Below, piece after piece: positions 3,239 to 64,000 of a stretch of 64,000 nt of DNA (position 1 is its first letter; the number at the start of each line of letters is the position of its first letter). The notes under the pieces are model-generated. The model was not told the origin of the DNA. It did no database searches and was given only the letters and a program-made list of their open reading frames with translations. Source of the stretch: an uncultured Bacilli bacterium (lineage in GTDB: Bacteria; Bacillota_I; Bacilli_A; RF39; UBA660); the NCBI GenBank assembly GCA_947628905.1, contig CANRBQ010000002.1:625-64624 (forward strand), in the 5' to 3' direction. The position numbers were made by a program, and so were the translations under genes.

Positions 3239-4240
3239 CTACTTTCCTTTCTTAACCCTTTTTTCTTTCTTTGGCTTTATTATAACATCTTTTTTATCTT
3301 CCATCTCATTTATTTTTTTAATTACTAAATTTTGTACGACCACAAAACCATTTGTTGCTATCCAGTATAGAGCTATCGCTGTAGATAAATATAAAGACGC
3401 TACCGAAATCATAATAATCATAAACTTAAACATAAACTGCATTTGGCTTTCCATCTCTGGATTACCTGTTTGATTAGAACCCATTGAATTTCTAAATGAC
3501 AAATATGTCGTTAAAATAATTAAAACTATTATGGCAATATATCCCCATTGATGATATTCAAAAAGTCCCATCATAGGTGTTCTACCCAAAGTTAAACCTA
3601 AAAACTTATCCTCGAATATCGCAGGAGTTCTATTTATTGCTTGCAAAAATGCAAAGAACAAAGGAAGCTGAATAAAAGCCAGTAAACAACTACCAAAAGG
3701 ACTAATATTATACTTCTTATATACCATCATCATTTCTTGAGACTTTTGAAGCATTGCTTCATTATCCGTCCTATTTGCGTATTTTCTTTCAATTCTTGCT
3801 AATTCTGGTTGAGCTTTCTTTAAATTATTAGATTGCTTCATTGTTTTTATAGAAATAGGCATTAATATTAATCTTATAGCAAGTCCAACAATAATTACTG
3901 ATAAACCAAAATTATTAATTAAATATCCCAATTTTAAGATAATAAATGCTAAAGGCTTAACAAATAATCCTTCCCATAAACCTGAAGCTTTATTACTACT
4001 CATTTTAAAATCTGCACATTTAGGAAGTTTATCATAAGCTATTTTAGTTTGATCTTTATATTCTGAATATAACTTATCTAAATCTTTATCTACTGGCTTA
4101 CATAAAATATCTTTTTGTAATACTTGTCCAGTCGCGTCATTCTGTACTGGTTTATTATCTTTCATAATATAGTTACTATTCCCACATCCTGTAAGCATTA
4201 CAATCATTAACACTATAATTCCAATTTTAAATTTCTTCAT
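3239..4240 (-). CDS. yidC: YidC/OxaA membrane protein insertase (lipoprotein type)
   Basis: Lipobox LTGC, multi-TM Oxa1 core, basic C-terminal tail. rnpA-yidC-jag synteny. Confidence 0.93.
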   Translation of the reverse strand: MKKFKIGIIVLMIVMLTGCGNSNYIMKDNKPVQNDATGQVLQKDILCKPVDKDLDKLYSEYKDQTKIAYDKLPKCADFKMSSNKASGLWEGLFVKPLAFIILKLGYLINNFGLSVIIVGLAIRLILMPISIKTMKQSNNLKKAQPELARIERKYANRTDNEAMLQKSQEMMMVYKKYNISPFGSCLLAFIQLPLFFAFLQAINRTPAIFEDKFLGLTLGRTPMMGLFEYHQWGYIAIIVLIILTTYLSFRNSMGSNQTGNPEMESQMQFMFKFMIIMISVASLYLSTAIALYWIATNGFVVVQNLVIKKINEMEDKKDVIIKPKKEKRVKKGK

Positions 4241-20815: not shown

Positions 20816-23800
20816 ATGAATTTTTTAAATAATTATTTTAAATATGATAATGATTTAACTATCACTGGTTTAACTAATCCCTTAGCCTATCTATATATTA
20901 CAAGTTTATTTAAAACTAAAAATAGAAATATTATTGTTTTAACATCAACTTTATATGAAGCTAATGAGTTTTATCGTGGTCTAAAAAATATTGAAGATAA
21001 TACTTATTTATTTCCTATGGATGATTTCTTAGCCAGTGTTGCTTTAGCTATATCTCCCGAACTAAAAGTAAATCGTATTGATACCTTAAATTCTCTTAAA
21101 AATAATAAAGGTATTATAATAACTAATCTAATGGGTTATTTAAAATTTTTAACAGATGCGAAAATCCAAAATAAATTAAATATTAAACTCGAAAAAAATA
21201 TGAATATTAATCGTGATAAATTAATAGAAATATTAAATGAACTAGATTATAAAAGAGAAACAATTGTAACAACTACTGGAGAATATGCTGTAAGAGGTTT
21301 TGTTATTGATATATTTGTAACTTTAAGTGATCATCCTATAAGAATTGAATTTTTTGGTAATACTATTGAATCAATTAGAACATTTGATGAAACTACTCAA
21401 ATATCTATTGAAGAAATATCTAGTATTAATTTAATTTCTAATGGTGAAATAAAAACTGAACATAAATCTAATTTATATGATTACTCTAATAATGCTATTG
21501 TAGTTACTATAGATAAAACTAGAATTAAAGCTAGTTACGAAAAATTAGTTCAAGAAATGTTTGATTATAAAGTAGCGAAAAATTTACCTCAAGATACTAA
21601 ATTTATGTTTGAATTAAATGAAATAAATCCTGAATATAATATTTATCTTCATTTGTTAGATAATAAAACTACTGCTAAAAATGCCTTGCATTTCACTAGT
21701 AAAGATTTAACTAACTTTAATTCTGATTTTACGAGACTAAAAGAAGCAACTAAAGTTTGGTACTCTAAAGGTTATGAAATAATATTTTGTTTAACTAAAC
21801 CTAATCAAGTAAAAATAATTAAATCAGAAATTGAAGTCCCCTTCTCGGTCATTAATATTCCTTTAACTAAAGGTTTTATCTTTGAAAAATATGTTGTAAT
21901 AACAGAATATGATATAGAAAATATTTCTAAAACAGAAATAAAATATAAAAACTCATATAAAATAGGTCGTAAAATTAAAGATTTAAATGCTTTAAATACG
22001 GGAGATTATGTTGTCCATATGGCTCATGGTATAGGTATTTATAATGGTATAAAAACATTAACTAAAAATGGTTTAGAAAAAGATTATTTAGAAATACTTT
22101 ATGAAGGAAATGATAAAGTATATGTTCCTGTTGAAAAAATAAATACCATTTTAAAATATGCTAGTAAAGATGGCTTAAAACCTAAAATAAATAAACTAAA
22201 TTCTACTTCATGGGCTAAAACCAAACGTAGTGTTGAAAAACGTATTAAAGATATATCAGAGGAATTATTAAAACTTTATGCCGCCAGACGTGCTTTTAAA
22301 GGTGAAAAATATGAATCATATGTAATGGAAGATGAGTTTGCAAATTCATTTGAATACACTCCAACTCATGATCAAGAAAGAGCAATAAAAGAAATAGATA
22401 TGGATTTAAAAAGTCCTGTTCCTATGGATAGATTACTATGTGGAGATGTTGGTTTTGGTAAAACAGAAGTAGCATTTAGAGCTATATTTAAAACTGTTTT
22501 AAATAATAAACAAGTTTTATATTTATGTCCTACAACAATATTATCTCGTCAACAATATAATTCTGCTCTAAATAGATTTAAAGATTACCCATTAAATATA
22601 GCCCTTTTAAACCGTTTTACAACTCCAAAAGAAACTAAAAAAATAATTGAAGACTTAAGTACTGGTAAAATAGATATTATCTTTGGTACTCATAGACTTC
22701 TAAGTGATGATATTAAATTCCAAAAATTAGGATTATTAATTGTCGATGAAGAACAACGTTTTGGTGTAACCCATAAAGAAAAAATAAAAAAATTAAAAAC
22801 AGATGTTAATGTCCTAACATTATCTGCAACTCCAATTCCTCGAACATTAAAAATGGCTATGTCTGGACTTCGTGATTTATCTGTAATTGATACTGCTCCA
22901 GTAAATAGATACCCTATTCAAACCTATGTTTTAGAAACAGAAGATTTAATTATTAAAGATGCTATTTATAAAGAATTATCTCGAAATGGTCAAATATTTA
23001 TACTTTATAATAACATCGAAGGATTAAGTAGCTTAATTAATAAATTAAATTTATTAGTTCCTGAAGCTAGAATTATTTCTGCTCATGGTCGTATGACAAA
23101 ACAAGAATTAGAGAATATCATGCAAGATTTTATTGATTATAAATATGATATTTTAGTTTGTACAACTATTATTGAAACTGGAATAGATATTCCTAATGCT
23201 AATACTTTAATTATATATAATGCTGATCACTTTGGTCTTTCTCAATTATACCAAATACGTGGAAGAGTTGGTAGGTCTAATAAGATTGCTTATGCTTATT
23301 TACTCTATGATAAAAGTAAAATTTTAAATGAAACTGCCATTAAAAGACTTGAAGCAATTAAAGAATTTACCGAACTTGGAAGTGGTTATCGTATTGCCAT
23401 GCGTGATTTAGCTATTCGTGGTGCCGGAGATATTTTAGGTAGTGAACAAGCTGGTTTTGTTGATTCTGTGGGAATTAATCTATATATGCAAATGATTGAA
23501 GAAGAAATGAAACGTTTAAAAGGAGAAGAAGTAAAAGAAGATGTCTCACCAACATCCTTAATTGATGTAGCAACCCATATTAGTGATGACTATGTTAAAG
23601 ATGATGAAATTAAAATAGAAATTCATAATAAAATAAATGAAGTAGATTCTAAAGAATCTTTAGAACGAATAAAAAATGAATTAGAAGATCGCTTTGGTAA
23701 AGTATCAGAAGAATTAATAATTTATATGTATGAAGAATGGTTTGAAAAACTTGCTAATGCTTTAAATATTACTCATGTCACTCAAACAAAAAGCTTTATT

Positions 23801-24004
23801 GAACTAGACTTACCAGAAGAAATATCATCTAATATTAAAGCAGATAAACTATTTCTAGAAAGTTATAATATTAATCCTAACTTTAAATTTAAATATCAAA
23901 ATAAACGTATTAAAATATCTTTAATGCTAAAAAAAGATGATAAACACTTCTTATACTACTTTGTTCCTTTATTAGAATTAATTAAAGGAGAACATACAAC
24001 TTAA
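20816..24004 (+). CDS. mfd: transcription-repair coupling factor
   Basis: 1062 aa with UvrB-homology, CarD/RID, DEAD-box helicase (GDVGFGKTE, DEEQRFG) and TRCF domains. Confidence 0.97.
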   Translation: MNFLNNYFKYDNDLTITGLTNPLAYLYITSLFKTKNRNIIVLTSTLYEANEFYRGLKNIEDNTYLFPMDDFLASVALAISPELKVNRIDTLNSLKNNKGIIITNLMGYLKFLTDAKIQNKLNIKLEKNMNINRDKLIEILNELDYKRETIVTTTGEYAVRGFVIDIFVTLSDHPIRIEFFGNTIESIRTFDETTQISIEEISSINLISNGEIKTEHKSNLYDYSNNAIVVTIDKTRIKASYEKLVQEMFDYKVAKNLPQDTKFMFELNEINPEYNIYLHLLDNKTTAKNALHFTSKDLTNFNSDFTRLKEATKVWYSKGYEIIFCLTKPNQVKIIKSEIEVPFSVINIPLTKGFIFEKYVVITEYDIENISKTEIKYKNSYKIGRKIKDLNALNTGDYVVHMAHGIGIYNGIKTLTKNGLEKDYLEILYEGNDKVYVPVEKINTILKYASKDGLKPKINKLNSTSWAKTKRSVEKRIKDISEELLKLYAARRAFKGEKYESYVMEDEFANSFEYTPTHDQERAIKEIDMDLKSPVPMDRLLCGDVGFGKTEVAFRAIFKTVLNNKQVLYLCPTTILSRQQYNSALNRFKDYPLNIALLNRFTTPKETKKIIEDLSTGKIDIIFGTHRLLSDDIKFQKLGLLIVDEEQRFGVTHKEKIKKLKTDVNVLTLSATPIPRTLKMAMSGLRDLSVIDTAPVNRYPIQTYVLETEDLIIKDAIYKELSRNGQIFILYNNIEGLSSLINKLNLLVPEARIISAHGRMTKQELENIMQDFIDYKYDILVCTTIIETGIDIPNANTLIIYNADHFGLSQLYQIRGRVGRSNKIAYAYLLYDKSKILNETAIKRLEAIKEFTELGSGYRIAMRDLAIRGAGDILGSEQAGFVDSVGINLYMQMIEEEMKRLKGEEVKEDVSPTSLIDVATHISDDYVKDDEIKIEIHNKINEVDSKESLERIKNELEDRFGKVSEELIIYMYEEWFEKLANALNITHVTQTKSFIELDLPEEISSNIKADKLFLESYNINPNFKFKYQNKRIKISLMLKKDDKHFLYYFVPLLELIKGEHTT

Positions 24005-24046
24005 AATATATTTACAAAATAAAAAATAAATGTTAAAATTTAAAAT

Positions 24047-24146
24047 GTAGAACATTTAAGAACAAATGCCTACAAAAAAACTATTTTCTATGGACATTTA
24101 TCTTTATATCAATACTGATTAAGATAAGTGTCATTTTTATTGCTTT
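24047..24146 (+). ncRNA. candidate antisense sRNA (module A)
   Basis: Promoter TTTACA(24011-16), 17 nt, TAAAAT(24034-39) with upstream TG. Terminator stem GACATTTATCTT (24093-104) / AAGATAAGTGTC (24121-132) followed by ATTTTTATT. Confidence 0.5.
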
Positions 24147-24182
24147 AAACAATATTATCACGAATAAAATTGCTTTTATCAT
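24081..24182 (-). CDS. candidate 33-aa hydrophobic/basic peptide (type I toxin-like)
   Basis: AGGAGGT, 8 nt, ATG. Hand translation: MIKAILFVIILFKAIKMTLILISIDIKINVHRK. Coding status unproven. Confidence 0.35.
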   Translation of the reverse strand: MIKAILFVIILFKAIKMTLILISIDIKINVHRK

Positions 24183-24317
24183 GACCTAGTACCTCCTATT
24201 CATAAACCCCATTAACAGTAAGGAAGAACAAATGAAAAGGAAAAATACAAGGTAGGCACTCGTCTTAAATGTTCAATTCTATTCTAAAACTAAAACAAGA
24301 ATTTGTCAAAAAAAGCG

Positions 24318-24334
24318 TTCGACAAAATTCGACA
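24318..24334. repeat. direct repeat TTCGACA-N3-TTCGACA, inside a 25-nt block identical to 63077-63101
   Basis: AAAAAGCGTTCGACAAAATTCGACA is identical in both modules, while the adjacent promoters differ. Confidence 0.6.
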
Positions 24335-24340
24335 ACTCCC

Positions 24341-24793
24341 CTATTTTAAATACTTAGGACTATCTACTCTTCCTAATAAGTAATCAGCACTAATTTTATA
24401 TTTCTTACATATGTCATATAAAAATGAAGTTGATATCAAATATATTCCTTTTTCATAATTAGATAAAAGAGATCTATTAGTGTGCAGATATTCTGCAAGT
24501 TTTTGTTGTGTAATATTATTTTCTTTTCTAAAATTCTTAATTCTCAATCCTACATTAATTTTATCTATGCTAGTATTAAATTTACTACCAGTACTATCAT
24601 TAAAACCAAATAAATAATCAATAGAAACATCAAAATAATTTGCTAAAGAAATTAGATGTTTAACGGGAATAGTTTGTGTTTCCTTTTCATATCTTCCATA
24701 CAAACTTTTATCAATTTGCAAATATTTTGCTAGTTCTACTTGGGATATTCCTATCCTTTCACGTAAAAGTTGCAACTGAATACCATAATTCAT
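24341..24793 (-). CDS. XRE-family transcriptional regulator with two HTH domains
   Basis: Two Cro/C1-type HTH units (ISQVELAKYLQIDKSLYGRYE and ITQQKLAEYLHTNRSLLSNYE). Start moved to ATG 24793, after GGTGG. Confidence 0.85.
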   Translation of the reverse strand: MNYGIQLQLLRERIGISQVELAKYLQIDKSLYGRYEKETQTIPVKHLISLANYFDVSIDYLFGFNDSTGSKFNTSIDKINVGLRIKNFRKENNITQQKLAEYLHTNRSLLSNYEKGIYLISTSFLYDICKKYKISADYLLGRVDSPKYLK

Positions 24794-24869
24794 AATTATT
24801 ACCACCGCATACATTTTCTCATTAAAAGAAATTAAATAGTTATAAAGTGGACAAATGCCAACATTTTTC

Positions 24870-24898
24870 TTGACAATTTACACTTGCTAGATTATAAT
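24870..24898 (+). promoter_or_regulatory. sigma-A-type promoter of surface-protein paralog 1
   Basis: TTGACA, 17 nt, TATAAT. Confidence 0.65.
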
Positions 24899-24909
24899 TT
24901 TAGTATAAG

Positions 24910-24923
24910 TTAGAAATTTCTAA
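24910..24923. promoter_or_regulatory. perfect 14-bp palindrome TTAGAAATTTCTAA (operator candidate)
   Basis: Lies just downstream of the -10. An identical copy is at 63470-63483. Confidence 0.5.
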
Positions 24924-24960
24924 TATAATTGAGTAAATCAATTAGAAAGAAGAGAAAGGT

Positions 24961-26274
24961 ATGAGGATAGAGAAGTTAAGTAAAGGAAGAAAAAAGAAAG
25001 TAATATTAGCTATAACAATATTAGTATTGTTAATAGGAATAGTATATATAACAAATAGTAAAGCTAAATATCATGTAACAAGTAATATACAAATAGTTAA
25101 AGGTAAAGTAAGTTATAGTCCATATGATTTTCAAATTATGGCAATGTATAAAGAAGAAGATGGAGAAGATATAAAAATAGAAGAAATGCCTGATTATAGA
25201 TATGCAATAGATGAAGAAAGAAGCTATTGCATGAGAGGAGATTCAAAAATAACAGGAGTATTAAAAACCATAAATGGATATCATACAATATCTAAATTGC
25301 ATACTAATGATAAATGTTATCTATATTTTGAAAATAATTCTTGTGGAAGTGCCTGTCAAAAAATACTTAATAATAAAACGATTCTTACTAGGACAGATTT
25401 TAATACTATTTTTGAAGGTTCTACAACTAATAAAATATATCAAAGCACAGATGATGATGGAAATACATATTATTTCGCCGGCTCCCCAACAGATAATTTT
25501 CTAAAATTTGCTGGATTTTACTGGAGAATTATCCGAATAAATGGCAATGGTTCCATTCGTATAATATATGATGGTACATCTATTCATAATAATAATAATA
25601 GTGCTGCAGATAGAGAGATTTTTACAAGTGCATTTAATGCCAGTGAAAATGATAATATGTACGTTGGATATATGTACAAAGCAAATGAAGTTCACGGACT
25701 TTCAGTTTCTAGCAAAATAAAAACAGATTTGGATTCATGGTATAACAGTAAATTATCATCATATTTAGATATGTTTGAAATTAATGCTGGCTTTTGTAAT
25801 GATAGAAAAAATTCAACAAATCCTTCAACACCATGGGGAAGCGAAACAGATGATGGAGGTACAGGAACAACAGATACATATTATGGAGAGTACCTTCGTA
25901 ATAATAAACAACAGCCTACTTTTAAATGTGCAGACGAAAGAGACCTGTTTACAACAAAGGACTCACAAATTGGTAATAATGCATTAACCTACCCTATAGG
26001 CTTAATAACCATGGATGAAGTAGTATATGCAGGCGGCTTTGCTAATAATACTAATAGTTTTTATTTACGCACCGGTAAAGATTTTTGGACAATGACTCCT
26101 AAATCATTTAATAATACTAATAAAATTGCCTATGTTAGTATAGTTTCTGCAGATGGAGGAATAAGAGGATATGTAGAAACAAAATATCCACGAGGAGTAC
26201 GCCCTGTTTTAAATTTAAAATCTAATATCAATTTAACTGGAACAGGCACAGTAAGTGATCCATATTCAGCATAA
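24961..26274 (+). CDS. secreted/surface protein, paralog 1 of a three-member family
   Basis: N-terminal signal-anchor (KKKVILAITILVLLIGIVYI). Shared family motifs: SYCMRG, KCYLYF, YWRIIRINGNGSIRIIY, YVGYMY, GFCNDR, PTFKC, GNNALTYPIGLITMDEVVYAGGF, FWTMTP, GVRPVLNLK. Confidence 0.8.
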   Translation: MRIEKLSKGRKKKVILAITILVLLIGIVYITNSKAKYHVTSNIQIVKGKVSYSPYDFQIMAMYKEEDGEDIKIEEMPDYRYAIDEERSYCMRGDSKITGVLKTINGYHTISKLHTNDKCYLYFENNSCGSACQKILNNKTILTRTDFNTIFEGSTTNKIYQSTDDDGNTYYFAGSPTDNFLKFAGFYWRIIRINGNGSIRIIYDGTSIHNNNNSAADREIFTSAFNASENDNMYVGYMYKANEVHGLSVSSKIKTDLDSWYNSKLSSYLDMFEINAGFCNDRKNSTNPSTPWGSETDDGGTGTTDTYYGEYLRNNKQQPTFKCADERDLFTTKDSQIGNNALTYPIGLITMDEVVYAGGFANNTNSFYLRTGKDFWTMTPKSFNNTNKIAYVSIVSADGGIRGYVETKYPRGVRPVLNLKSNINLTGTGTVSDPYSA

Positions 26275-26336
26275 ATAATTAAAATTCTTGCCTAAGTTGC
26301 TCTAACTTTTTATTCTTGGGCAAGATTAAATTCCAT

Positions 26337-26361
26337 GCGAAGGAACTCTCTTCGCTTTTTT
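26337..26361 (+). terminator. rho-independent terminator after paralog 1
   Basis: GCGAAG / CTTCGC stem followed by TTTTTT. Confidence 0.65.
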
Positions 26362-26411
26362 ACTTTAAAAAATTCTTTTTTTCTGTTATTATATATATCG
26401 AGGTGAAAACT

Positions 26412-27011
26412 ATGCCTAAACTTTTAACTATCAACCAAAAAGAAATCCCCACTATTAATACTACCATCTTATATACTAGTAATTTTAATTATATTAAAGA
26501 TGCTCAAGAATACATAGTAAATGATTGTACTGTAATAACCAAAGATACTTTAAAAGATTTAACTTTATCTCCTACTCTTTTTAAAAAATTTAACTGTGAG
26601 TATCTAATAAATAAAGAAGATTTAACTTTAATAGATAAAATTAAAATAAATATTTTAAATAGCCTAGAAAGTTCTAATAAAATATATGTATTTTTTAATG
26701 TTTTAACTTATTTAGATTATGAATTTAAAACAAATATAATTAATTATTTAAAAGAAAATAATAAACAAATAATAAATTATACGACTGATATAGAAGAAAC
26801 CCTATTATTAGAATATTTAATGGTAATTCAAAATAACAATATAATCATGGAAGGCTTAAAAGAAGATATCTTAAAAGAAGAAAAAATCCTCCAAAAATTA
26901 GGTTTTAATCTTCCATTTATTGTCGAACTATCTTTAGGTTTAAAATATTATAATCTTGTAGATAATTTATATTTTAATAATGAAAGTTTGGTGAATAGTC
27001 TATGGAAATAA
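26412..27011 (+). CDS. degenerate EcfA-like ABC ATPase homologue (no Walker A/B)
   Basis: The C-terminus GFNLPFIVELSLGLKYY...LVNSLW resembles the EcfA1 tail GLDLPFSFQLSQLL...LVKELW (from memory). The Walker B position reads VFFNVLT. Start moved to ATG 26412, after the GAGGTGA RBS; the tracked N-terminus covers a terminator. Confidence 0.6.
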   Translation: MPKLLTINQKEIPTINTTILYTSNFNYIKDAQEYIVNDCTVITKDTLKDLTLSPTLFKKFNCEYLINKEDLTLIDKIKINILNSLESSNKIYVFFNVLTYLDYEFKTNIINYLKENNKQIINYTTDIEETLLLEYLMVIQNNNIIMEGLKEDILKEEKILQKLGFNLPFIVELSLGLKYYNLVDNLYFNNESLVNSLWK

Positions 27012-27625
27012 TGACAATTCTTGAAAATAAAAATATGGGAGTTATCTATGGTTTATTAGGAAATCTTACTTTAACTACTAATTCTAATGATATTTCTCTT
27101 GTATCATATTACAAATTTAAAGATACTGTTGAATCTTATCTTGAAAGTGATAAAGCTCTTAAATCTCTTAAAATGGTATTTTTAGATGCTACATATTTAT
27201 CTAAAACTATAAAAGATTTATCTGAATCAGAAATAAAAAAGATTAACTTAGCTAAAGCTTTAATTGCCAATAAAGAAATTATTGTTTTAGATTTTTTTGA
27301 TAAAGGTTTAACAAATAAAGAACAAAAAGATTATCAAAGATTATTTAAAAAATTAGCAGAAAATTACCATAAAACAATAGTTATATATACTAATGATGTA
27401 ACTTTCTTTTGGAATATCGCAACTGAAATAATTTATGTTGATAACCAAAAAGTTATAAACACTTATTCTAAAAATGAAGATATTCCCAATATAAATCCTC
27501 CTATTAAAGAACTTATTAATTTAATGCGCTCTAAAAATTTAAAAATAGATAATTATAAAGATACTAAAGATTTATTAAAAGCTATTTATCGCTTAAAGGA
27601 GAATGAAAATGAAATATCTAATTAG
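27002..27625 (+). CDS. degenerate EcfA-like ABC ATPase homologue
   Basis: ABC signature and Walker B region recognisable but altered: LSESEIKKINLAKALIANKEIIVLDFFDKGL (LSGGQ to LSESE, DEP to DFF), H-loop TN, Walker A position GLLGNLTLT without Lys. Confidence 0.65.
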   Translation: MEIMTILENKNMGVIYGLLGNLTLTTNSNDISLVSYYKFKDTVESYLESDKALKSLKMVFLDATYLSKTIKDLSESEIKKINLAKALIANKEIIVLDFFDKGLTNKEQKDYQRLFKKLAENYHKTIVIYTNDVTFFWNIATEIIYVDNQKVINTYSKNEDIPNINPPIKELINLMRSKNLKIDNYKDTKDLLKAIYRLKENENEISN

Positions 27626-61217: not shown

Positions 61218-62780
61218 ATGAAAATAATTAATGCCAAAGAAGTAGCCAGTCTTATTAAAAATAATGCTACTGTAGCTATATCTGGAAGTGGTGGTTCAGG
61301 ATCCCCAGAAAACCTTTTAAAATCTCTGATGGATAGTTATAATACTAATAAACAACCTAAAAACATAACAGTCGTTACCGGAATATCACCAGGTAATTTA
61401 ACTAAAGATTATGTTGGCATGAATATGTTAAGTGCTGATGGTTTAGTTGGAAAAGCTATATGTGCTCATCTAGGTATGGGAAAATTATTTGGCGAAAAAG
61501 TAGGTAAAAATATTTTTCCAGCCTTTGCCCTACCATTAGGAGTTCTAAATCATCTATTGCGAGCAATCGCCGGCCATGAACCAGGAATTATTACTCATAT
61601 TGGTTTAGATACTTTTGCAGATCCTAGACAAGAAGGATGCTGTGCTAATGATTTAGCTAAAAATGAAGAACCAATTGTCGAATTAATTAAAATTGCTAAA
61701 GAAGATTATTTATTCTATAAATCTTTTCCTATAAATGTTGCTCTTATTAAAGCTACTTATGCCGATGAACTAGGAAATATTAGCTTTGAACATGAAGCTG
61801 TTTTAGGAGAACAATTTAATATGGCCGCGGCCACCCATAATTCTGGAGGCATAGTTATAGTTGAAGTAAAAGAAATAAAACCTGCTGGCTCTCTTCGTGC
61901 TAAAGATGTTCTAATTCATAGTAAACTAGTTGATTATGTTGTAATCGGTAAACCAGATACATCATTAGGTGATTATAATTTACCAATTTATCATCCCGAG
62001 TATACAGGTGATAAAAAAATAAAACTAGAAAAATTACCTATAAAAGAATTAGATGAAAGAAAAATATGTGCTAGAAGAGCCGCCATGGAAATAAAAAAAG
62101 GCTATGCTATTAATTTAGGTGTTGGCATGCCTGATATGGTTGCAAATGTAGCCGCAGAAGAAAATATATCACAAGAAATATCATTATCAATAGAATGTGG
62201 CCCAATGGGTGGAGTACCTGTTGGGGGTATCGCGTTTGGTGCTAGTAGAAATCCTGATAGTATAATTCCAACTGCTGAAAATTTTGATTTATATAATGGA
62301 GGTTTTCTTGATATGGCAATATTAGGACTTGCCGAGGTTGATCAAGAAGGAAATGTTAATGTTTCAAAATTTGGCTCTCGAATAACAGGACCAGGAGGCT
62401 TTATCAATATTACCCAAAGTACTAAAAGAATTATATTTATGGGAACATTTACAGCTTCAAATTTAAAAGAAAGTATTATAGATGAAAAATTAATAATAAA
62501 TAATGAAGGAGAAAAAATAAAATTTGTTAATAAAGTAGAACAAATAACCTTCAGTGGTAAAAATGCTTTAAAAAACAATTTAGAAATTATGTATGTAACA
62601 GAAAGAGCAGTATTTAAATTAACTAAAGGTGGCTTAGAATTAATTGAAATAGCCCCAGGAATTGATCTTCAACAAGATATATTAAATAAAATGGAATTTA
62701 AACCAATAATATCATCTAAACTAAAACTAATGGATAAAAGAATATTTAAAGATGAAAAAATGAATTTAACTATTGAATAA
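61218..62780 (+). CDS. acyl-CoA:acetate / propionate CoA-transferase family protein
   Basis: 520 aa. ATVAISGSGGSGSPE and the central ECGPMGGVP-type motifs fit family I CoA-transferases (YdiF/Pct-like). Confidence 0.8.
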   Translation: MKIINAKEVASLIKNNATVAISGSGGSGSPENLLKSLMDSYNTNKQPKNITVVTGISPGNLTKDYVGMNMLSADGLVGKAICAHLGMGKLFGEKVGKNIFPAFALPLGVLNHLLRAIAGHEPGIITHIGLDTFADPRQEGCCANDLAKNEEPIVELIKIAKEDYLFYKSFPINVALIKATYADELGNISFEHEAVLGEQFNMAAATHNSGGIVIVEVKEIKPAGSLRAKDVLIHSKLVDYVVIGKPDTSLGDYNLPIYHPEYTGDKKIKLEKLPIKELDERKICARRAAMEIKKGYAINLGVGMPDMVANVAAEENISQEISLSIECGPMGGVPVGGIAFGASRNPDSIIPTAENFDLYNGGFLDMAILGLAEVDQEGNVNVSKFGSRITGPGGFINITQSTKRIIFMGTFTASNLKESIIDEKLIINNEGEKIKFVNKVEQITFSGKNALKNNLEIMYVTERAVFKLTKGGLELIEIAPGIDLQQDILNKMEFKPIISSKLKLMDKRIFKDEKMNLTIE

Positions 62781-62807
62781 AAAACAAAATTATATTACAA
62801 TTAAATT

Positions 62808-62912
62808 GTAGAACATTTAAGGATTAAATGCCTACAAAATTATTTAAGTTTCGAGACACTTATCTTAATATTAAGTATCAACTTAATAGATAGAAGTGTC
62901 TTTTTTGTTTTT
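62808..62912 (+). ncRNA. candidate antisense sRNA (module B)
   Basis: Promoter TTGAAT(62773-78), 17 nt, TACAAT(62796-801). Terminator AGACACTT(62854-61)/AAGTGTCT(62894-901) followed by TTTTTGTTTTT. Confidence 0.5.
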
Positions 62913-62947
62913 AAAAACAAATTTAATGGTAAAATTACTTTTATCAT
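62840..62947 (-). CDS. candidate 35-aa basic peptide (module B)
   Basis: AGGAGG, 9 nt, ATG. Hand translation: MIKVILPLNLFLKTKKTLLSIKLILNIKISVSKLK. Less hydrophobic than the module A peptide, so coding status is doubtful. Confidence 0.25.
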   Translation of the reverse strand: MIKVILPLNLFLKTKKTLLSIKLILNIKISVSKLK

Positions 62948-63084
62948 AACTCTGTACCTCCTTAAACATAACCCCCTGATAAATCAGTAAAGGTAAATGG
63001 AAAGGACATATAAAGTAGGCACTTCACCTTAAATGTTCAAGTTATTATTATAAGTATAAAAAAAGAATATGTCCAGAAAAAGCG

Positions 63085-63101
63085 TTCGACAAAATTCGAC
63101 A
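63085..63101. repeat. direct repeat TTCGACA-N3-TTCGACA (copy 2)
   Basis: The 25-nt block is identical to 24310-24334. Confidence 0.6.
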
Positions 63102-63142
63102 CATAGAAATTATTTTAATACTTATCATTTATTTAAAAGTAT

Positions 63143-63340
63143 CTATTCCTCTTTCTTCATATTCTCTATTGCATAATAACAAGCAGAACAAACAAAACCA
63201 TTAAAACTATATTCTTTTTTAGTTTTGCCTTTATTAGCTTTCTTAACTATTTCATTAATGCTATTAAACAATTCTTCATCAAATCTAATGCTTTTGATAA
63301 CATTACTATTTTTTGATTTTTTAAATTCAAATTCTTTCAT
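63143..63340 (-). CDS. small ribbon-helix-helix (CopG/Arc-like) protein
   Basis: 65 aa. VIKSIRFDEELFNSINEIVKK fits the beta-strand plus helix pattern of RHH repressors. It is divergent from surface-protein paralog 3. Confidence 0.5.
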   Translation of the reverse strand: MKEFEFKKSKNSNVIKSIRFDEELFNSINEIVKKANKGKTKKEYSFNGFVCSACYYAIENMKKEE

Positions 63341-63429
63341 ACATAACTCCTATTCCAATTATTTTTATAACACAAAAAAGCAATTATTAATATAACATAA
63401 AAAGTAACACAAAAAAGGTTACAAAAATA

Positions 63430-63458
63430 TTGACTTTTAAGATTATCAATTATATAAT
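63430..63458 (+). promoter_or_regulatory. sigma-A-type promoter of surface-protein paralog 3
   Basis: TTGACT, 17 nt, TATAAT, followed by the palindrome TTAGAAATTTCTAA at 63470-63483. Confidence 0.65.
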
Positions 63459-63519
63459 TTTAGTATAAGTTAGAAATTTCTAATATAATTGAGTAATCAA
63501 TTAGAAAGAAGAGAAAGGT

Positions 63520-64000
63520 ATGAGGATAGAGAAGTTAAGTAAAGGAAGAAAAAAGAAAATAGTATTAGTTATAACAATATTAGTATTGTTAATAGGAATA
63601 ATATATATAACAAATAGTAGAGCTAAATATCATGTAACAAGTAATATTCAAATAGTTAAAGGTAAAGTAAATTATAGTTTAGCAGATTTAAATGTTGTAG
63701 CTTTAAAAATACAAGAATCAGAGAATAGTGAAACGTACACTCCAACAGATGAAGTACCAACTGGAAACTATGAAGTTAATACGCAAAATAGCTATTGTAC
63801 ACTTCCAGGAGATAATATAGAACATAAAGATATTCCAATGGAATATAAAAATGGAAAGGTATATATAGGAATAAATCAAAAAGGAACAAAATGTTATGTT
63901 TTTTTAGATATAAGTAAACCATCAGAAAAAACATTAGCAAAACTGCATTTATCAAAAGCAGGAGATTTACCATCAGAGATAAGTACATATGCATGTGATA
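63520..64000 (+). CDS. secreted/surface protein, paralog 3 (5' partial; runs off the window; not in ORF track)
   Basis: Hand translation MRIEKLSKGRKKKIVLVITILVLLIGIIYITNSRAKYHVTSNIQIVKGKV... is nearly identical to the first ~50 aa of paralog 1 and then diverges. The frame is open to position 64000. Confidence 0.8.
   Translation, partial: MRIEKLSKGRKKKIVLVITILVLLIGIIYITNSRAKYHVTSNIQIVKGKVNYSLADLNVVALKIQESENSETYTPTDEVPTGNYEVNTQNSYCTLPGDNIEHKDIPMEYKNGKVYIGINQKGTKCYVFLDISKPSEKTLAKLHLSKAGDLPSEISTYACD

Follow-up and report, generated by a model that had tools for sequence, protein, structure and literature searches.

A candidate multi-copy type I toxin-antitoxin-like module in uncultured low-GC gut Bacilli

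The window analysed here comprises 64,000 nucleotides (nt) of the genome of an uncultured Bacilli bacterium (GenBank assembly GCA_947628905.1, contig CANRBQ010000002.1). The gap between mfd (20816-24004, recognised in a domain search by TRCF, CarD_RID and UvrB_inter domains) and a minus-strand gene for an XRE regulator (24341-24814) is filled by a locus named module A, which by its anatomy is probably a type I toxin-antitoxin-like module with the architecture of bsrG/SR4 of Bacillus subtilis. The initial annotation had read the locus as type I-like or as another antisense-controlled small-protein gene, and this reading was supported by a coding open reading frame (ORF), two conserved promoters, co-evolving mRNA arms and a terminator on the antisense strand. 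The arrangement goes beyond chance, because it recurs at 62768-63105 and at over 50 related sites. Type I toxin-antitoxin loci hardly ever receive an annotation, and to our knowledge the characterised examples all come from cultured bacteria. The present loci appear to be a new, unannotated family within this known kind. Module A contains the following elements, where SD denotes the Shine-Dalgarno sequence.

24281-24309, minus strand, promoter of the peptide mRNA, TTGACA-17-TAGAAT, 11 of 12 consensus positions
24035-24274, minus strand, predicted peptide mRNA of about 235-240 nt, 5' end placed from the -10 box
24252-24274, minus strand, 5' arm of the closing 5'-3' helix, GAACAUUUAAGACGAGUGCCUAC, from inverted repeats, fold and co-evolution
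24234-24245, minus strand, anti-SD stretch, UUUUUCCUUUUC, paired with the SD in the minimum-energy fold
24191-24197, minus strand, SD AGGAGGT, with the ATG 8 nt further on
24157-24185, minus strand, start-codon hairpin with the GNRA loop GCAA in the minimum-energy fold
24081-24182, minus strand, 33-codon ORF (24182-24084) and stop codon (24083-24081) from the ORF list, MIKAILFVIILFKAIKMTLILISIDIKINVHRK
24047-24073, minus strand, 3' arm of the closing helix, GUAGGCAUUUGUUCUUAAAUGUUCUAC; an alternative local hairpin may terminate the mRNA
24011-24039, plus strand, antisense promoter TTTACA-17-(TG)TAAAAT, score 10 of 12
24047-24141, plus strand, predicted antisense RNA of about 95 nt, ends placed by prediction, supported by its fold
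24093-24138, plus strand, intrinsic terminator of the antisense RNA inside the ORF, hairpin 24093-24132 and T-run

On the minus strand, a promoter, a fold-back of its RNA and a small ORF with a masked SD had been proposed, and each was borne out. The promoter stands at 24309-24281, and in 30 aligned full modules its -35 and -10 columns were conserved and lay at a constant spacing from the 5' arm. In the predicted transcript nucleotides 24274-24252 pair with 24073-24050 in helices of 12 bp and 7-8 bp around a small internal loop. An independent search for inverted repeats of 12 nt returned a perfect pair (24263-24274/24050-24061) and one of 83 % identity (24252-24263/24062-24073). AGGAGGT is followed after 8 nt by the ATG at 24182 and 33 codons, and the SD core AAAGGAGG is conserved family-wide. 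The pyrimidine stretch at 24245-24234, suspected of masking the SD, does pair with it; the unpaired probability of the SD was 0.05. The segment 24274-24040 (minus strand, 235 nt) folded at -69.5 kcal/mol, shuffled sequences at -39.1 ± 3.9 kcal/mol (z = -7.8, none of 200 as good), and the closing 5'-3' helix of the folded mRNA joins its first and last nucleotides. The predicted 3' end was placed at a local hairpin of -9.8 kcal/mol that is followed by the U-rich tract AUUUUAAAUUUU.

The proposed plus-strand promoter with a short RNA was also recovered, as TTTACA-17-TAAAAT with TG at 24011-24039 and a terminator at 24093-24132. The RNA of about 95 nt is fully complementary, as claimed, to the last third of the ORF and to the 3' arm, and also to the stop codon; the ORF codons covered are 15-33. 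It is predicted to begin with a hairpin that is complementary to the 3' arm, to continue with a single-stranded linker of 18 nt and to end in the terminator; the two hairpins folded at -21.2 kcal/mol with z = -3.7 to -3.9. The tract directly after the terminator hairpin is ATTTTTATT / AUUUUUAUU, its T-run being the complement of the codons ATA-AAA-ATG, and family-wide the U-run is the complement of conserved Lys codons. An extended -10 box (TGnTAnnnT) 9-10 nt from the arm and a -35 box at 16-18 nt were present in nearly all scorable copies, including the orphan copies that have kept only the antisense gene, and a per-copy scan showed the terminator run to be conserved as well and found no full copy without an antisense promoter. 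The antisense strand gave the more stable form of the ORF-internal hairpin in 24 of 31 copies (mean -16.5 vs -13.1 kcal/mol), and four inner pairs of the terminator hairpin carried compensatory changes. An antisense gene as in type I systems, complementary to the mRNA of the presumed toxin and equipped with a promoter and a terminator of its own, is thus recognisable from the sequence.

A search with the 5'-arm sequence found a second, paralogous module in the window.

62768-63105, minus strand, second module, nhmmer E = 1.7e-76
63085-63100, minus strand, direct repeat GTCGAATTTTGTCGAACGCTTTTT
63075-63047, minus strand, promoter TGGACA-17-TATAAT
63038-63015, minus strand, 5' arm
62947-62840, minus strand, ORF of 35 aa, MIKVILPLNLFLKTKKTLLSIKLILNIKISVSKLK
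62835-62808, minus strand, 3' arm
62773-62910, plus strand, antisense unit with the promoter TTGAAT-17-TACAAT (62773-62801), RNA start at about 62808 and terminator hairpin at about 62853-62902 with T-run

It lies downstream of a CoA-transferase gene (61218-62780). Its mRNA folded at -67.4 kcal/mol (z = -6.5) and its antisense RNA at -26.0 kcal/mol (z = -4.9). The SD is that of module A, and so are the arms except for one compensatory change from A:U to G:C in the closing helix; the two peptides have only MIK.IL in common. Relatives were retrieved by scanning one genome per species with a 3'-arm pattern, which yielded 41 loci. Forty of these came from nine rabbit-gut metagenome-assembled genomes (MAGs) labelled "uncultured Bacilli", with about 5-12 places per MAG; the remaining one, on a Calditrichota contig without nhmmer support, was treated as a chance match. 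A hidden Markov model built from 30 complete modules was run over these loci and the window and recognised 32 full copies and about 20 partial ones. The GC content of the window is 26.5 %, and sporulation genes (GPR, SirA) in the neighbourhood on related contigs point to spore-forming low-GC Firmicutes as hosts. The family has so far been found in uncultured low-GC gut bacteria only.

The structure of the mRNA was examined in 31 aligned copies by nhmmer alignment and explicit pair counts. The RNAalifold consensus consists of a closing helix of 23 pairs, an anti-SD:SD helix (UUUCCUUU:AAAGGAGG), a hairpin just past the AUG and the ORF-internal hairpin. Standard pairing was found for 97.1 % of the consensus pairs vs 36-53 % with slid partners, nine pairs showed compensatory changes, and none of 500 shuffles matched the observed pairing or covariation score. 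The closing helix was paired to 99.2 % and the anti-SD:SD helix of 8 bp to 97.6 %. The start-codon hairpin bears a GNRA loop in 30 of the 31 copies (GUAA 16, GCAA 7, GAAA 4, GUGA 3), and at one pair of its stem, columns 119:128, 25 copies have AU and five have GC. This covarying, GNRA-capped hairpin would explain why M1, I5 and L6 are the sole invariant residues of the peptide. The mean unpaired probability of the SD over all copies was 0.04 and stayed at 0.04-0.05 when either arm was removed in silico; the masking is therefore local, and the closing helix has another role. On these models the SD is masked by the local anti-SD stretch and the start-codon hairpin rather than by the 5'-3' helix, for which protection of the RNA ends or concealment of the antisense target are plausible roles. 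The analogy to hok/sok drawn by the initial annotation thus holds for the 5'-3' closing helix and fails for SD masking, on which deletion of the arms had no influence. An SD-sequestering fold of the mRNA, typical of type I toxins, is predicted from the anti-SD:SD pairing, the low SD accessibility and the presence of the closing helix.

Since the loci of the main family had been retrieved by their arm sequence, diverged members were sought through the neighbouring XRE gene, by which members in the JGI collection were also reached. Six diverged lineages (L168/169; L172-175 and L186; L180/181; L184; L185; L187) have the module in the same position, with arms of a different sequence. The outer helix, GAACAUUUAAGR in the main family, reads GAGCGUUAG, GAGCAUUAGGU, AGCGUUAGGGA, GAGCAUUGGGGC or GGGCGUUAAGGAG in these lineages. 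Duplexes between cognate arms had energies of -28 to -34 kcal/mol and were the best of every row and column of the comparison, with -13 to -27 kcal/mol across unrelated lineages; duplexes with the nearest relatives came within about 2 kcal/mol of the cognate ones and never exceeded them. Whole diverged mRNAs folded with z = -4.3 to -9.4 and contained the closing 5'-3' helix. By eye, the anti-SD stretch, a small ORF ending at the 3' arm, the convergent promoter and, inside the ORF, a hairpin with U-run on the antisense strand are kept. Covariation across related genomes, named in the initial annotation as a check, was hence observed: the arms co-evolve with cognate pairs best, and the terminator hairpin covaries. 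A further diverged module stands behind another XRE gene (L032, 1-298, minus strand; 5' arm GAGCGTTAGGACTTGCGTCTAC, 29-codon ORF MKLLVSLKVILNYIICLLSSKRKLANKNQ) and was left out of the arm comparison, the contig ending before the 3' arm.

Inverted repeats of 23 nt about 200 bp apart, in many copies per genome, would also be the appearance of a miniature inverted-repeat transposable element with the arms as terminal inverted repeats for a transposase. This explanation is scarcely credible and was rejected, as the repeats are not the ends of the repeated unit: conservation runs about 75 bp past one arm and about 50 bp past the other and includes the promoters and the direct repeat. The arms tolerate G:U and not A:C pairs, and through the G:U pairs the arms form the stabler duplex on the mRNA strand in eight of eight lineages, a property of RNA. 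Furthermore, the position relative to the XRE gene is fixed, and no match was obtained in phage and plasmid collections or in viral contigs.

An intact ORF of 31-42 codons is present in 30 of the 32 full copies, and ORFs of 27-40 codons are open in the six diverged lineages. The two dead ORFs, both with an intact antisense gene, are those of L013 (ATG to ATA) and L032 (deletion of 1 nt with frameshift). From the ATG to the end of the terminator hairpin ten distinct lengths were counted, of which nine are multiples of three and account for 30 of 31 copies, while the one remaining length, 110 nt, belongs to L032. Eight of nine distinct insertion or deletion events in the ORF comprise 3, 6, 9, 12 or 21 nt, with the L032 frameshift as the exception, and the chance of eight in-frame events in an ORF of unconstrained length is about (1/3)^8. 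The lengths of the 5' untranslated region (UTR) are split 17/9/5 over the residue classes, and UTR insertions and deletions of all sizes occur. The ORF is evidently a real coding sequence under constraint, and the small translated frame (<60 codons) expected of a type I toxin is present on evolutionary evidence. The initial annotation had named a pattern of persisting structure with an interrupted ORF as pointing to a pure RNA gene; this pattern was not seen across the family, the ORF being open in all but two of the full copies and in the diverged lineages. Several of the best conserved codons do lie in RNA helices, those of the start-codon hairpin and of the antisense terminator, as they would in a purely non-coding structured RNA in which the ORF is incidental. 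We consider this very improbable, given that 30 of 31 copies preserve the frame at nine lengths, that a strong SD has canonical spacing in nearly all copies, and that the ORF is open in at least seven divergent lineages of an AT-rich genome.

At least nine copies are antisense-only: they keep the terminator, linker, 3' arm and promoter of the antisense gene and have lost the promoter, UTR and SD of the peptide gene. They occur in L009, L011, L017, L019, L027, L031 and L186. In L019, L031, L027, L017, L009 and L186 such units stand in tandem directly behind a full module, often at about 30-50 bp, an arrangement that gives two antisense genes per peptide gene.

Among the known systems, bsrG/SR4 of B. 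subtilis comes closest in anatomy. In the probed structure of the bsrG mRNA a helix P1 joins nt 1-35 with 232-262, the SD lies in a stem and the terminator follows P1 (PMC3834814); SR4 contacts this mRNA first by a loop-loop interaction, promotes its degradation and tightens the sequestration of the SD (PMC3834814). The likeness, also to bsrE/SR5 and bsrH/as-bsrH, consists in convergent genes, an overlap of the antisense RNA with the 3' portion of the mRNA, the ORF end included, a 5'-3' closing helix, an SD in a double-stranded stem and a terminator hairpin after the closing helix (PMC3834814). The bsrG/SR4 type of architecture is thus present, and with the 3' overlap the antisense RNA would compete for the 3' strand of the closing helix. 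Homology to this system was not detected through the family libraries, BsrG and SR4 themselves having been compared by their published anatomy. Differences are that the antisense RNA here has about 95 nt vs 183 nt, with a terminator internal to the ORF; that an additional GNRA-capped hairpin holds the AUG; that there are about 5-12 places per genome with tandem antisense-only genes; that the loci are linked to an XRE gene and a direct repeat and not to a prophage; and that the peptide is Lys-rich and variable instead of a uniform transmembrane helix.

In the Gram-positive families of T1TAdb the antisense RNA is positioned 3' and overlaps the ORF (PMC8594479), and this position is shared with txpA/RatA, yonT/SR6 and SprG/SprF (PMC8594479). 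For SprG/SprF, several paralogous copies and a possible cross-regulation are reported (PMC6393307). These three systems differ in that no sequence relationship exists and their toxins are longer or clearly hydrophobic. We know of none among them described as XRE-linked or as having tandem orphan antitoxin genes. With hok/sok of plasmid R1 and AapA1/IsoA1 of Helicobacter pylori the module shares a long-distance 5'-3' lock and a cis-sequestered SD (PMC8594479). However, the antisense RNAs of the latter systems act on the 5' or initiation region, whereas here the overlap (24047-24141) covers the 3' end of the mRNA and leaves out the SD and AUG (24197-24180); the closing helix, in silico, does not mask the SD, and activation by 3' trimming is a feature of those two systems. 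Fst/RNAII of the par locus of pAD1 has convergent transcription, a peptide of about 33 residues and an SD-sequestering 5' structure as well, but the Fst RNAs interact outside the overlap, which excludes the ORF (PMC8594479). In module A the overlap includes codons 15-33 and the antisense terminator is inside the ORF. The Fst toxin family was not matched, as no Pfam family was.

By analogy to these systems, a sigma-70-type promoter would produce an mRNA of about 235 nt for a cationic helical peptide of 33 residues. The mRNA would be made in a locked, stable and silent form, held by the anti-SD stretch, the GNRA-capped start hairpin and the end helix of about 23 bp. The antisense RNA might make its first contact through the open 18-nt linker or through complementary hairpin loops. 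It follows from the sequences that its 5' end can compete with the 5' arm of the mRNA for the 3' arm; because the two are nearly the same in sequence, the spreading pairing could invade the closing helix and displace the 5' arm. The resulting duplex of about 95 bp would then be cleaved by a double-strand-specific RNase such as RNase III before the mRNA is unlocked and translated. At a low supply of antisense RNA a part of the mRNA would be opened, perhaps by a 5' processing that removes the anti-SD stretch; the peptide would then be made and harm the cell, most likely at the membrane. Cross-protection between paralogous copies is likely, because the arms are nearly identical in all paralogues of a genome. 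We infer the transcript ends, the involvement of an RNase, the activation step and the toxicity.

Searches for known families gave little. Rfam at gathering thresholds returned for the whole window only a bacterial small signal recognition particle RNA (RF00169, 14550-14635, plus strand, 50.5 bits), and a permissive Rfam scan (E up to 10) of 23950-24400 gave only chance-level matches, the best with E = 1.6. The scan for homology to known type I toxin or RNA families suggested by the initial annotation found no relevant match in Rfam, Pfam, NCBIfam, PHROG or PADLOC. A profile of the peptide matched only 13 unnamed clusters among 5.8 billion proteins, a measure of how rarely gene callers have recorded it, and exhaustive HMMER against 1.84 billion representatives yielded four matches, all already known. 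The 3'-arm pattern had no match in the viral_contigs collection, and distant blastn had none in phage and plasmid collections. A pattern of the SD and the N-terminal codons gave 120 matches in viral_contigs and was discarded as non-specific; most represent an unrelated 20-aa ORF, MLKGILGYSFWACFWFGKCK, that stands behind AAGGAGG in more than 113 viral contigs (L042-L161, IMG/VR). Five matches of a 5'-UTR pattern in JGI metagenomes were chance hits in GC-rich DNA without nhmmer support.

The peptide of module A was predicted by AlphaFold2 as a single helix (residues 2-32, pLDDT 84). Its Kyte-Doolittle maximum over 19 residues is 2.58 at a net charge of +5, a hydrophobicity predicted to be within the range of membrane-spanning segments. 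These values are comparable with those of classical type I toxins. Several observations weigh against the type I reading. Across the family the peptide sequence is very plastic; some subfamilies are cationic and too polar to span a membrane (Kyte-Doolittle maximum 0.66-1.4), the second copy in the window is below the membrane range (1.00), and the diverged ORF of L187 is mostly polar. The peptides had no match to a known toxin or antitoxin family in Pfam, NCBIfam, PHROG or PADLOC (E up to 10 or 0.01). I5 and L6 overlap the stem of the start hairpin, and the constraint on them may be one of RNA, not of protein. In the main family 15 of the 23 closing-helix pairs are invariant, and the covariation rests mainly on few diverged lineages. 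The asymmetry between the antisense-only copies and the lack of full copies without an antisense promoter, which a toxin-antitoxin relationship would predict, is suggestive only, because the loci were first retrieved with the 3'-arm pattern and this ascertainment accounts for part of the excess of antisense-only copies.

A small protein without toxicity, tuned by its cis-antisense RNA and with a benign membrane or regulatory role tied to the neighbouring XRE and F1 genes, is unlikely, though to be taken seriously. The poor conservation of the peptide, with several subfamilies not hydrophobic, and the missing homology to known toxins agree with it, and the constant linkage to the XRE gene and to a variable, membrane-anchored F1 protein of about 440 aa suggests a role in a cassette. 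However, a triple lock together with a dedicated antisense RNA is a hallmark of products that are not to be made (PMC8594479), antisense-only copies and dead ORFs with intact antisense genes fit a selection against unguarded toxin genes, and multi-copy spread is typical of type I families. The type I toxin-antitoxin-like reading is the one we prefer.

The surroundings of module A belong to a repeated cassette, in which the following elements adjoin the peptide gene.

24318-24333, minus strand, direct repeat GTCGAA-TTTT-GTCGAA just upstream of the -35 box of the peptide mRNA, a putative operator
24341-24814, minus strand, XRE regulator with two HTH_3 domains (Pfam HTH_3, two stretches, E = 2.6e-26)
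24870-24898, promoter of the F1 gene, TTGACA-17-TATAAT, 12 of 12
24961-26274, F1 gene

The XRE gene ends 6 nt before the direct repeat and is co-oriented with the peptide mRNA. Module-linked XRE genes encode proteins of about 150 aa with two HTH_3 domains and the C-terminus ...SADYLLGRID.PKYLK. They are usually divergent from a gene termed F1, whose product of 390-540 aa has an N-terminal membrane anchor and a weak match to DUF6273 only. The cassette of XRE, F1 and peptide/antisense genes comprises about 2.5 kb and is inserted in many copies per MAG between unrelated housekeeping genes. It was seen in the window at 24341-26274 and 63143-64000 and in the loci L001, L006, L012-L014, L023, L029-L032, L036, L039 and L040. 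The second module adjoins another F1 gene (from 63520), and a 65-aa ORF (63143-63340, minus strand) stands where the XRE gene would be; its match to the YlcI/YnfO N-terminal family is weak (E = 2.4e-4) and below the cut-off. The two F1 genes have almost the same leader, in which a palindrome TTAGAAATTTCTAA comes right after a near-consensus promoter (24910-24923 and 63470-63483, plus strand); the palindrome is a probable operator distinct from the GTCGAA repeat. Between F1 and truA two ORFs (26316-27625, plus strand), one with a partial and weak match to an ABC-type ATPase, may be degenerate transporter ATPase genes.

The direct repeat has an exact second copy at 63085-63100, and five matches with at most two mismatches, both exact copies included, were found in the window vs 1.1 expected. 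It is kept in nearly all full modules and in the diverged subfamilies and is inverted in four copies; no other DNA of the cassette is as well conserved as GTCGAA-TTTT-GTCGAAC with the T-run and the -35 box that follow it. As terminator of the XRE gene the repeat was ruled out, as only a stem of 4 bp is possible. The half-sites 10 bp apart and a regulator with two helix-turn-helix domains suggest an operator. In L171 (about 3490-3520) the repeat precedes a gene for a UvrD-like helicase with no module present; repeat and promoter ahead of this unrelated gene therefore represent a portable promoter unit. The proximity to the XRE gene allows the module to be regarded as a 3' appendix of that gene, a structured region of 3' UTR and terminator, whether or not translated, that stabilises or attenuates its transcript and is no gene pair in its own right. 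The start lies -7 to +13 nt from the stop codon of a co-oriented XRE gene in 15 of the 32 full modules, with no terminator between, and in four partial or diverged ones, and all six diverged versions stand right behind XRE genes, where they had been sought by design. Nonetheless, this is improbable: a conserved -35/-10 pair lies at a constant distance from the 5' arm, about half of the modules, the second copy in the window included, have no upstream XRE gene, and the repeat and promoter of L171 drive an unrelated helicase gene. That the peptide/antisense pair, in place of an addiction module standing alone, forms one leg of a multi-copy cassette of F1, XRE and peptide/antisense genes, in which the XRE protein binds GTCGAA-N4-GTCGAA, is a tentative proposal and distinctly doubtful.

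For the type I toxin-antitoxin-like family as a whole, comparative sequence alone was enough to define the complete set: the ORF, its three translational locks, and a promoter and a terminator for each of the two RNAs. Its consensus can be used for annotation and guards against reading such loci as repeats or as empty intergenic DNA. With co-varying closing helices, frame-preserving insertions and deletions and antisense-only copies, the family presents a natural mutational series for the cooperation of a 3' antisense RNA with a 5'-3' helix. Most unusual about the family are its embedding in the cassette of XRE and F1 genes, the conservation of the direct repeat, the antisense-only genes in tandem and a plastic peptide sequence. 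Given the XRE linkage and the direct repeat, a type I system may here have a protein regulator built into it. If this holds, a type I toxin would be doubly controlled, by a protein repressor or activator and by one or, counting the tandem orphans, two antisense RNAs; a hybrid of this sort might serve to stabilise or switch loci of hypervariable surface proteins, or might act as a suicide trigger upon inactivation of the regulator.

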